Below are positions 50,194 to 50,673 of a stretch of 64,000 bases of DNA, in pieces. Numbering within the stretch: position 1 is the stretch's first letter; the number at the start of each line of letters is the position of its first letter. Origin of the DNA: Eledone cirrhosa (lineage: Eukaryota); the NCBI GenBank assembly GCA_964016885.1, contig OZ024740.1, positions 378,572,001-378,636,000 on the forward strand, read 5' to 3'. Below the pieces are notes generated by a model, which saw only the letters and a list, made by a program, of their open reading frames with translations, searched no databases and was not told where the DNA came from. The position numbers were made by a program, and so were the translations under genes.

Positions 50194-50327
50194 CATGTAA
50201 AGTTATATTTAAAATTGTTGGGTTACAACTAGTAAATATTTATAACTGATATAAAAGCACTCGACAAATACTTGGAGTATATTTACAATATTAAATAAAT
50301 GGAAAACTATATTTATAAAACCATATC

Positions 50328-50393
50328 TATTTCATTATATATATTTCGGGGATATCATATTAACAATATGCTATGCCTTCATCAGACAAAATA
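50328..50393 (-). ncRNA. Type I hammerhead ribozyme
   Basis: Reverse complement of 50551-50616. Confidence 0.75.
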
Positions 50394-50550
50394 CAATATA
50401 AACAGTTTTATAGATAAATATATTCGACATACCGTAATAAACATCAACTTCATTTGAAGAGGTTTACTCTGCTAGAGTAAACCTCTTCAAATGAAGTTGA
50501 TGTTTATTACGGTATGTCGAATATATTTATCTATAAAACTGTTTATATTG

Positions 50551-50616
50551 TATTTTGTCTGATGAAGGCATAGCATATTGTTAATATGATATCCCCGAAA
50601 TATATATAATGAAATA
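50551..50616 (+). ncRNA. Type I hammerhead ribozyme
   Basis: TATTTTGT-CTGATGA-stem II-GAA-ATATATAT-A-ATGAAATA, with palindromic stem III. Confidence 0.75.
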
Positions 50617-50673
50617 GATATGGTTTTATAAATATAGTTTTCCATTTATTTAATATTGTATATAAATACATAT

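Follow-up and report, generated by a model that had tools for sequence, protein, structure and literature searches.

Whether a short palindrome made of the ends of a Penelope-like retroelement (PLE) is the residue of a single insertion or an element able to move by itself is the question raised by the hairpin lying near 50.3 kb of the window, that is, the whole stretch of 64,000 nucleotides of Eledone cirrhosa DNA that was analysed (contig OZ024740.1, positions 378,572,001 to 378,636,000 of the forward strand). A sequence-only reading of the window had proposed that such hairpins are formed repeatedly by snap-back priming and may themselves be mobile. The palindrome is real, derives from a PLE and is a known kind of PLE insertion scar; its parts, numbered by window position, are:

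50182..50193, plus strand: 12-bp direct repeat, left copy (14 bp with two bases of the arm included), likely a target-site duplication
50194..50283, minus strand: one-sided 90-nt tail, which extends the left arm past the shorter 3′ end, from sequence match and read ends
50284..50470, minus strand: left arm, a PLE 3′ end (pLTR) with its sense on the minus strand
50471..50473, no strand: 3-nt loop, the head-to-head junction
50474..50660, plus strand: right arm, a PLE 3′ end without the tail
50661..50672, plus strand: right copy of the 12-bp direct repeat

In an exact scan the two arms (50284-50470 and 50474-50660) are complementary at 187 of 187 positions, with the next pair outward mismatched, which bears out the identity around a 3-nt loop (50471-50473) that had been called by eye; likewise, the extra tail of about 90 nt on one arm, said to recur at 370-462, aligns with 375-459 in 77 of 85 columns. 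The tail (50194-50283) is one-sided and family-wide, being found in window copies and in reads, and its length of 90 nt compares with the 30-40 bp that serve as a criterion for EN+ PLE units. The unit at 50194-50660 is without any ORF body and sits inside long TA arrays, about 600 bp from a gap of 200 N (49387-49586), in a window about one-third of which is dinucleotide repeat. Both flanking arrays run in one polarity, TAAAT outnumbering ATTTA by 29 to 4 on the left and by 27 to 0 on the right. A C-containing direct repeat of at least 12 bp occurred in 0.5% of 200,000 random position pairs in the two flanking arrays, a figure that would be somewhat higher if the boundaries may slide, and the 12-bp direct repeat bracketing the hairpin is likely a target-site duplication.

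The origin of the arms can be followed in two further copies of the same family:

52418..56936, minus strand: 90% relative with a 5′-truncated Hydra-clade ORF (open stretch 53821-55785)
1..459, minus strand: fragment of the ORF (1-204), to which a short inverted 3′ end with tail (239-368) is joined

The hairpin arm matches the end of the 52418-56936 copy in 161 of 179 columns, the match beginning 9 nt inside the arm, and both arms carry the same differences from it. This agrees with the PLE origin proposed earlier and with the description of the hairpin as the terminus of the coding family at 52418-56937; the neighbour, however, being only 90% identical, without tail and without any match to the arm's innermost 9 nt or to the loop, is a relative and not the direct parent that it had been taken for. 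It consists of a 1.4-kb 3′ region and, at its 5′ side, of a 985-bp inverted copy of its own 3′ end; an in-frame stop lies above the open stretch, the RT catalytic motif is altered and the first part of the ORF is missing. The 985-bp arm as the natural 5′ region of the ORF was rejected, read ends and depth favouring the 3′-end reading.

The ORF of the relative has 71 homologues at E values up to 1e-20, nearly all unnamed. A Pfam search gave no family for it, its protein-atlas neighbours include GIY-YIG clusters, and a comparison of the protein with metagenome contigs gave 0 related loci. The ORF contains an RW motif (reading RWR), DKT, a CxCx5C linker, and CxxC and CxH near its end; among the 71 homologues, DK[TS] is present in 47, ADKG in 0, CxCx5C in 50 and YRDD in 64. 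The traits of the Hydra clade given in PMC8557442 are an RWK-type motif, DKT replacing DKG, CxCx5C, and CxxC and CxH at the end, with a (TA)n target and a hammerhead also listed. The last two are found for the 50.3-kb family as well, and the RW motif, DKT, CxCx5C, and CxxC and CxH are shared, although the copy here is truncated and broken. On the basis of motifs, target and hammerhead, the family is assigned to the Hydra clade as an abundant PLE family.

Just above the inverted junction of the relative, at 55961-56125 of the minus strand, a peptide resembles the N-terminal motif of the family and lies about as far from the RW motif as would be expected; this was the ground for considering the 985-bp arm as a natural 5′ region. 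The N-terminal pattern has no other match in six frames, but the peptide was not among the top hits of a profile built from 24 homologue N-termini. The stretch 53402-53820 (plus strand), considered as a decayed ORF start, was rejected, with 0 of 71 homologues matching. The arrays flanking the relative, at 51161-52417 and 56937-58450, mirror each other: an interrupted-TA unit of 15 nt is present 24 times in plus orientation on the left and 25 times in minus orientation on the right, never reversed, and once more at 59105. Thus, the inverted duplication reaches about 1.3-1.5 kb beyond the relative, which, with its flanks, looks as if its arms had been copied from a read-through template or duplicated at the DNA level.

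Each arm of the hairpin carries a ribozyme motif:

50328..50393, minus strand: type I minimal hammerhead of the left arm, core starting at 50385
50551..50616, plus strand: type I minimal hammerhead of the right arm, core 50559-50565, stem II 50566-50596, GAAA 50597-50600

In both, the CTGATGA core is followed by GAAA after a 31-nt stem II; the cores start 174 bp apart and the hammerheads read outward. That of the right arm (50551-50616) has an extra 5′ base at stem II, a palindromic helix III and a predicted cut after 50608. The canonical hammerhead formerly assigned to each arm is canonical in its core boxes but, with stems I and II and a short palindromic helix III also present, is of the type I minimal form known from PLEs. 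Among the five motif copies of the family in the window (273, 50559 and 56836 on the plus strand; 50385 and 52517 on the minus strand), N7 is the sole position of the core boxes that varies, and it is the only core position among the read variants listed (40 of 59). An Rfam scan of the window returned 0 families at the gathering score, and on 50194-50660 no hammerhead family was among 24 hits with E up to 10; these sub-threshold hits, mostly to miRNA and snoRNA models, were rejected as reflecting the long AT-rich stem. The closing position of stem II was considered as a ribozyme-breaking mismatch and this, too, was rejected, an extra base there being normal according to PMC4209133. The metazoan PLE minimal hammerheads of that source share the type I core, the extra base, the long stem II and the palindromic helix III with those found here; opposite-strand motif pairs 100-700 bp apart (174 bp here) and a U3-A8 core variant, present here in a second family, are reported there as well. 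Its available part holds no analysis of loop junctions or of their mobility.

As the two motifs are opposed, each strand has one sense copy, and the two are never both sense on one transcript. On folding, the unpaired probability of the core is at most 0.001 in a hairpin transcript versus 0.33-0.84 in a single arm; the sense core is predicted to be fully paired in a transcript running through the hairpin. According to PMC4209133, metazoan PLE minimal hammerheads presumably work as tandem dimers, and their cleavage in vitro is poor; an anole PLE carries out insertion in vitro with no need for hammerhead cleavage (PMC11167929).

Part of the hairpin stretch was found in 10 of 17 public runs listed, no RNA run with the stretch being among the 17, and four were aligned at 85% likeness. 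X1, X4 and X5 are contigs and X15 consists of raw RAD reads that bear X1's species label and come from another study; X4 and X5 are runs of other studies, and X1 may be the assembly's own sample. The stretch matched 2415 contigs in X1 and 30,062 reads in X15, and the family is, therefore, abundant. In X1, the summed contig depth, which is not a copy number, amounts to 0.5-1.1 million in bins of the outer arm and to 10,000-60,000 in those next to the loop; 5′ truncation would produce such an inward fall, to which divergence adds. Among the X15 reads, 2038 molecules stop at 50213, near the end of the tail, beyond which the sequence is mixed, and 6393 reads extend past 50640, crossing the tail-less end and entering TA. 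A pair of defined 3′ ends is what would be expected from two reverse-transcription start sites (cf. PMC11167929).

Among the joints listed in these data, 13 distinct turn-arounds from left arm to right arm were found, all different from the 50.3-kb loop (of 21 listed, 7 that were not left-to-right turns and 1 duplicate were dropped). Their depth is 3.8-63 in X1 or 9-22 reads in X15, and their offsets from symmetry range from −52 to +77, two of the 13 lying within 1 nt and eight being off by more than 20 nt. The threshold for calling a joint was 85% likeness, and five of the 13 have one side of only 22-27 nt; one is present in both X1 and X15, and those seen in one run only may be library fold-back chimeras. 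No listed record spans the exact 50471-50473 loop, but a contig across it would not be listed as a joint, and in X1 the bin depths hold its summed depth to about 10,000 at most. The 27-nt loop junction had 0 matches in metagenome contigs, where the host is not expected and to which no weight is given. Contigs identical to the hairpin arm over 151 nt in X4 and 142 nt in X5 suggest that the arm haplotype is probably that of a young multi-copy subfamily, so that the differences from the neighbour shared by the two arms need not be private to the locus. The 13 low-depth joints fit repeated dead-end hairpin formation in the family, and lend no support to the earlier proposal that the hairpin itself may be mobile: the other junctions are each of low depth, and the exact loop was not seen again, although a multi-copy loop would be compatible with the bin depths.

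Within the window, inverted units lie at 1487, 25124, 50194, 62374, 58546, 59951, 52418 and 7523, with spacers from 1 nt to several kb, and the 50.3-kb hairpin is the short extreme of this series. Repeated formation of such hairpins, as had been proposed, is supported. Besides those already given, its members include:

1487..1768, plus strand: hairpin of a second family, with a 1-nt loop at 1560, a 69-nt deletion in the left arm, the tail on the right and a U3-A8 core at 1600
25124..25478, minus strand: 146-bp hairpin of the second family, with a 1-nt loop at 25332, a 62-nt tail on the left and U3-A8 cores in both arms
59951..62270, minus strand: Hydra-clade copy with a truncated ORF (60960-61943), an inverted 3′ end of about 228 bp, a tail of about 90-97 nt and a 20-bp flanking direct repeat
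7523..15803, plus strand: GIY-YIG PLE from a different clade; its pLTRs are direct, a copy of 2.7 kb is inverted, and the long arm bears a tail of about 30 nt
62374..62625, no strand: older palindrome with 80-bp arms (75/80), a one-sided extension of about 70 nt and TA flanks, a candidate only for PLE origin

The tails of the short hairpins and Hydra-type copies measure 62-97 nt. At 7523-15803 the tail belongs to the long arm; at 59951-62270 and in the 1-459 copy, the other end of which falls outside the window, it is the short inverted arm that bears it. Motif scans found no hammerhead in the 62374 palindrome. A shared design had been noted at 1487, 25124 and 62374, where palindromes with a one-sided extension are indeed present, but the families are not all unrelated, the hairpins at 1487 and 25124 belonging to one family (234 of 251 columns, 93%). 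These two turn within 2 nt of each other and, at 4 of 4 clean diagnostic substitutions in the stretch covered by all four arms, both arms carry the allele of their own copy; the left arm at 1487 shows private damage besides. Copy-specific alleles shared by the arms would not arise if a finished palindrome had simply been duplicated and had then drifted; the pair fits either fold-back events that took place independently at a preferred site or a hairpin that is transcribed from inside one arm and restored on insertion. Searches with the junction pattern of the second family gave 0 matches in prokaryote genomes and 0 in viral contigs, which, with no host expected there, have no weight.

Other features of the window were recorded alongside. 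Beside the 1487 hairpin, at 1771-2230, a short piece of a Hydra-type ORF precedes a sense hammerhead (2182). In a larger, older fold-back at 58546-59804, the arms are about 580 bp long, agree in 533 of 588 columns and enclose a short spacer, and no hammerhead was found in it by scans. At 40290-46060, microsatellite and unique DNA together form a large, near-perfect inverted duplication, the outer part of which agrees in 809 of 812 columns; it may be a genuine fold-back or else a feature of the assembly. Where the 59951 element has its inverted junction (61945-61960), about 15 nt match, by eye, the 62374 palindrome (62480-62500), 500 bp off, and are possibly templated filler DNA. A perfect 46-bp palindrome without loop lies outside the TA arrays at 22162-22207. 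Two minus-strand ORFs at 32124-36748 are presumably non-LTR retrotransposon-like, and a 570-bp relative of the end of the first lies at 519-1056.

As to how the 50.3-kb palindrome arose, it was probably, though with appreciable room for doubt, a one-off, dead-end insertion product, the cDNA having stopped at about 280 nt and folded back on itself. From what is known of the clade, the endonuclease of the family would have nicked the TA-rich array. Reverse transcription may then have started from the outer of two start sites, of the kind described in PMC11167929, and copied the tail and 187 nt. The 3′ end of the cDNA would have paired with itself across the 3-nt loop and been extended back along itself, the second arm ending at the inner site, so that the tail would be left on one side. 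The hammerheads would be passengers of the pLTR, with the sense core predicted to be locked in duplex in a hairpin transcript.

Snap-back priming, as invoked by the sequence-only reading, is thus the likeliest route, but had already been proposed for PLE junction palindromes: in PMC3846280, where 18- and 38-bp palindromes lie at pLTR 5′ ends, self-priming was inferred from the palindromes of head-to-head junctions, but on an antisense RNA template. For L1, both self-annealing of cDNA and twin priming are described (PMC11702581). In structure prediction, fold-back at the 50.3-kb loop appears only once 4 bp can self-pair, and a linear template upstream of the loop was not seen. Furthermore, a tail on the short arm alone (59951-62270, also 1-459) is not explained by a single folded cDNA and calls for a second priming event, and the near-identical turn point shared by the second-family hairpins, which would be rare under random truncation, argues against one-off fold-back.

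This shared turn point lends some substance to an otherwise unlikely reading, in which transcription would begin inside one arm, pass the loop and continue across the second arm and the tail. The cDNA of such a transcript would hold a ready-made hairpin, each insertion restoring the same loop and freshly identical arms, a scheme to which we give a low probability. The turns of the 1487 and 25124 hairpins within 2 nt, their 1-nt loops and the alleles that are copy-specific in both arms (4 of 4) agree with it, as do the exact, probably multi-copy, 50.3-kb arm haplotype in X4 (151 nt) and X5 (142 nt), a depth beside the loop compatible with a multi-copy junction, and the report that pLTRs are sufficient in cis for mobilisation (PMC3846280). 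In the 50.3-kb family, however, every listed joint differs and is of low depth, and the second-family case amounts to two copies with loops 2 nt apart, for which a preferred stop site accounts equally well. If a self-rebuilding, non-autonomous PLE hairpin is present, which is doubtful, the best candidate is the 1487/25124 pair.

It is likewise improbable that the palindrome results from priming on both target strands by a dimeric PLE protein, with one cDNA from each start site and the ends joined; at 50.3 kb, the two cDNAs would, by an unlikely coincidence, have stopped at nearly the same place. The position of the tail, which two copies have on the short arm and one on the long arm, would suit this scheme, as would the eight of 13 joints that are more than 20 nt off symmetry, and the anole PLE protein, a predicted dimer, cuts and extends both strands from two start sites (PMC11167929). 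Yet independent stops would rarely meet within 0-3 nt, as they do in three hairpins of the window and in two of the 13 joints. Finally, it is very improbable that a fold-back chimeric read was built into the contig: the hairpin does lie about 600 bp from the 200-N gap, inside long TA arrays, and no listed read record is shown across the 50471-50473 loop, but such a read would mirror both flanks and tail, whereas here the flanks are unmirrored, the tail is one-sided and a direct repeat brackets the unit, the symmetry stops exactly at the 3′ end used by the family in independent raw reads, and older hairpins with diverged arms are found in the same window.

Taken as a one-off fold-back product, the hairpin can be set beside known systems. 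With the EN+ PLE insertion units of PMC8557442 and PMC3846280 it shares head-to-head inverted 3′ ends, a junction palindrome, a tail on one end, a short target duplication and an AT-rich target; its arms derive from 3′ ends, these point outward, and a direct repeat of 12-14 bp is present. It differs in having no ORF body, and tails are 62-97 nt here as opposed to 30-40 nt there. According to PMC8557442, the tail may be on either end of a unit, which matches the window series, and the mechanism that generates inverted ends and tails is still undefined; PMC3846280 describes an inverted pLTR beside a direct one, a 31-bp tail and 8-10 bp duplications, and PMC8969392 counts inverted pLTRs and 3′ extensions among PLE traits. 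Non-LTR retrozymes (bioRxiv 10.64898/2026.07.22.740005) are, similarly, non-coding, hammerhead-bearing derivatives of PLE pLTRs, but they are head-to-tail tandems, each unit with a hammerhead, in which hammerheads can pair as dimers, whereas the two units at 50.3 kb are inverted, head to head, with one sense motif per strand.

MITEs are short, non-coding, palindromic and TA-flanked, and are able to form hairpin RNA. All of these traits are common to the 50.3-kb hairpin, which differs in its asymmetric ends and its derivation from a retroelement, and for which neither a transposase partner nor a uniform multi-copy family was seen. The literature on PLE structure that was covered, which included few subscription papers, describes no mobile PLE hairpin family and no tails as long as these.

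Palindromes at junctions, tails, opposed hammerheads and self-priming have, thus, already been published; so has the siRNA output that the sequence-only reading had suggested as possible, since siRNAs are reported to match the inverted regions of rearranged Penelope copies (PMC3681739). The 50.3-kb hairpin is a clean example of a known PLE insertion scar, and its value is mechanistic. The genome holds many junctions in several families, the loop sizes, tail sides and turn points of which could separate fold-back from twin priming, and, given tails of 62-97 nt, the distance between the two start sites of reverse transcription is predicted to be greater in these families than in the anole element. 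If shared loops were truly multi-copy, they would define a palindromic non-autonomous retroelement, in which the loop would be inherited while fold-back makes the arms identical anew at each insertion. Such an element would be a retrotransposed counterpart of MITEs, seeding perfect dsRNA templates across the genome.
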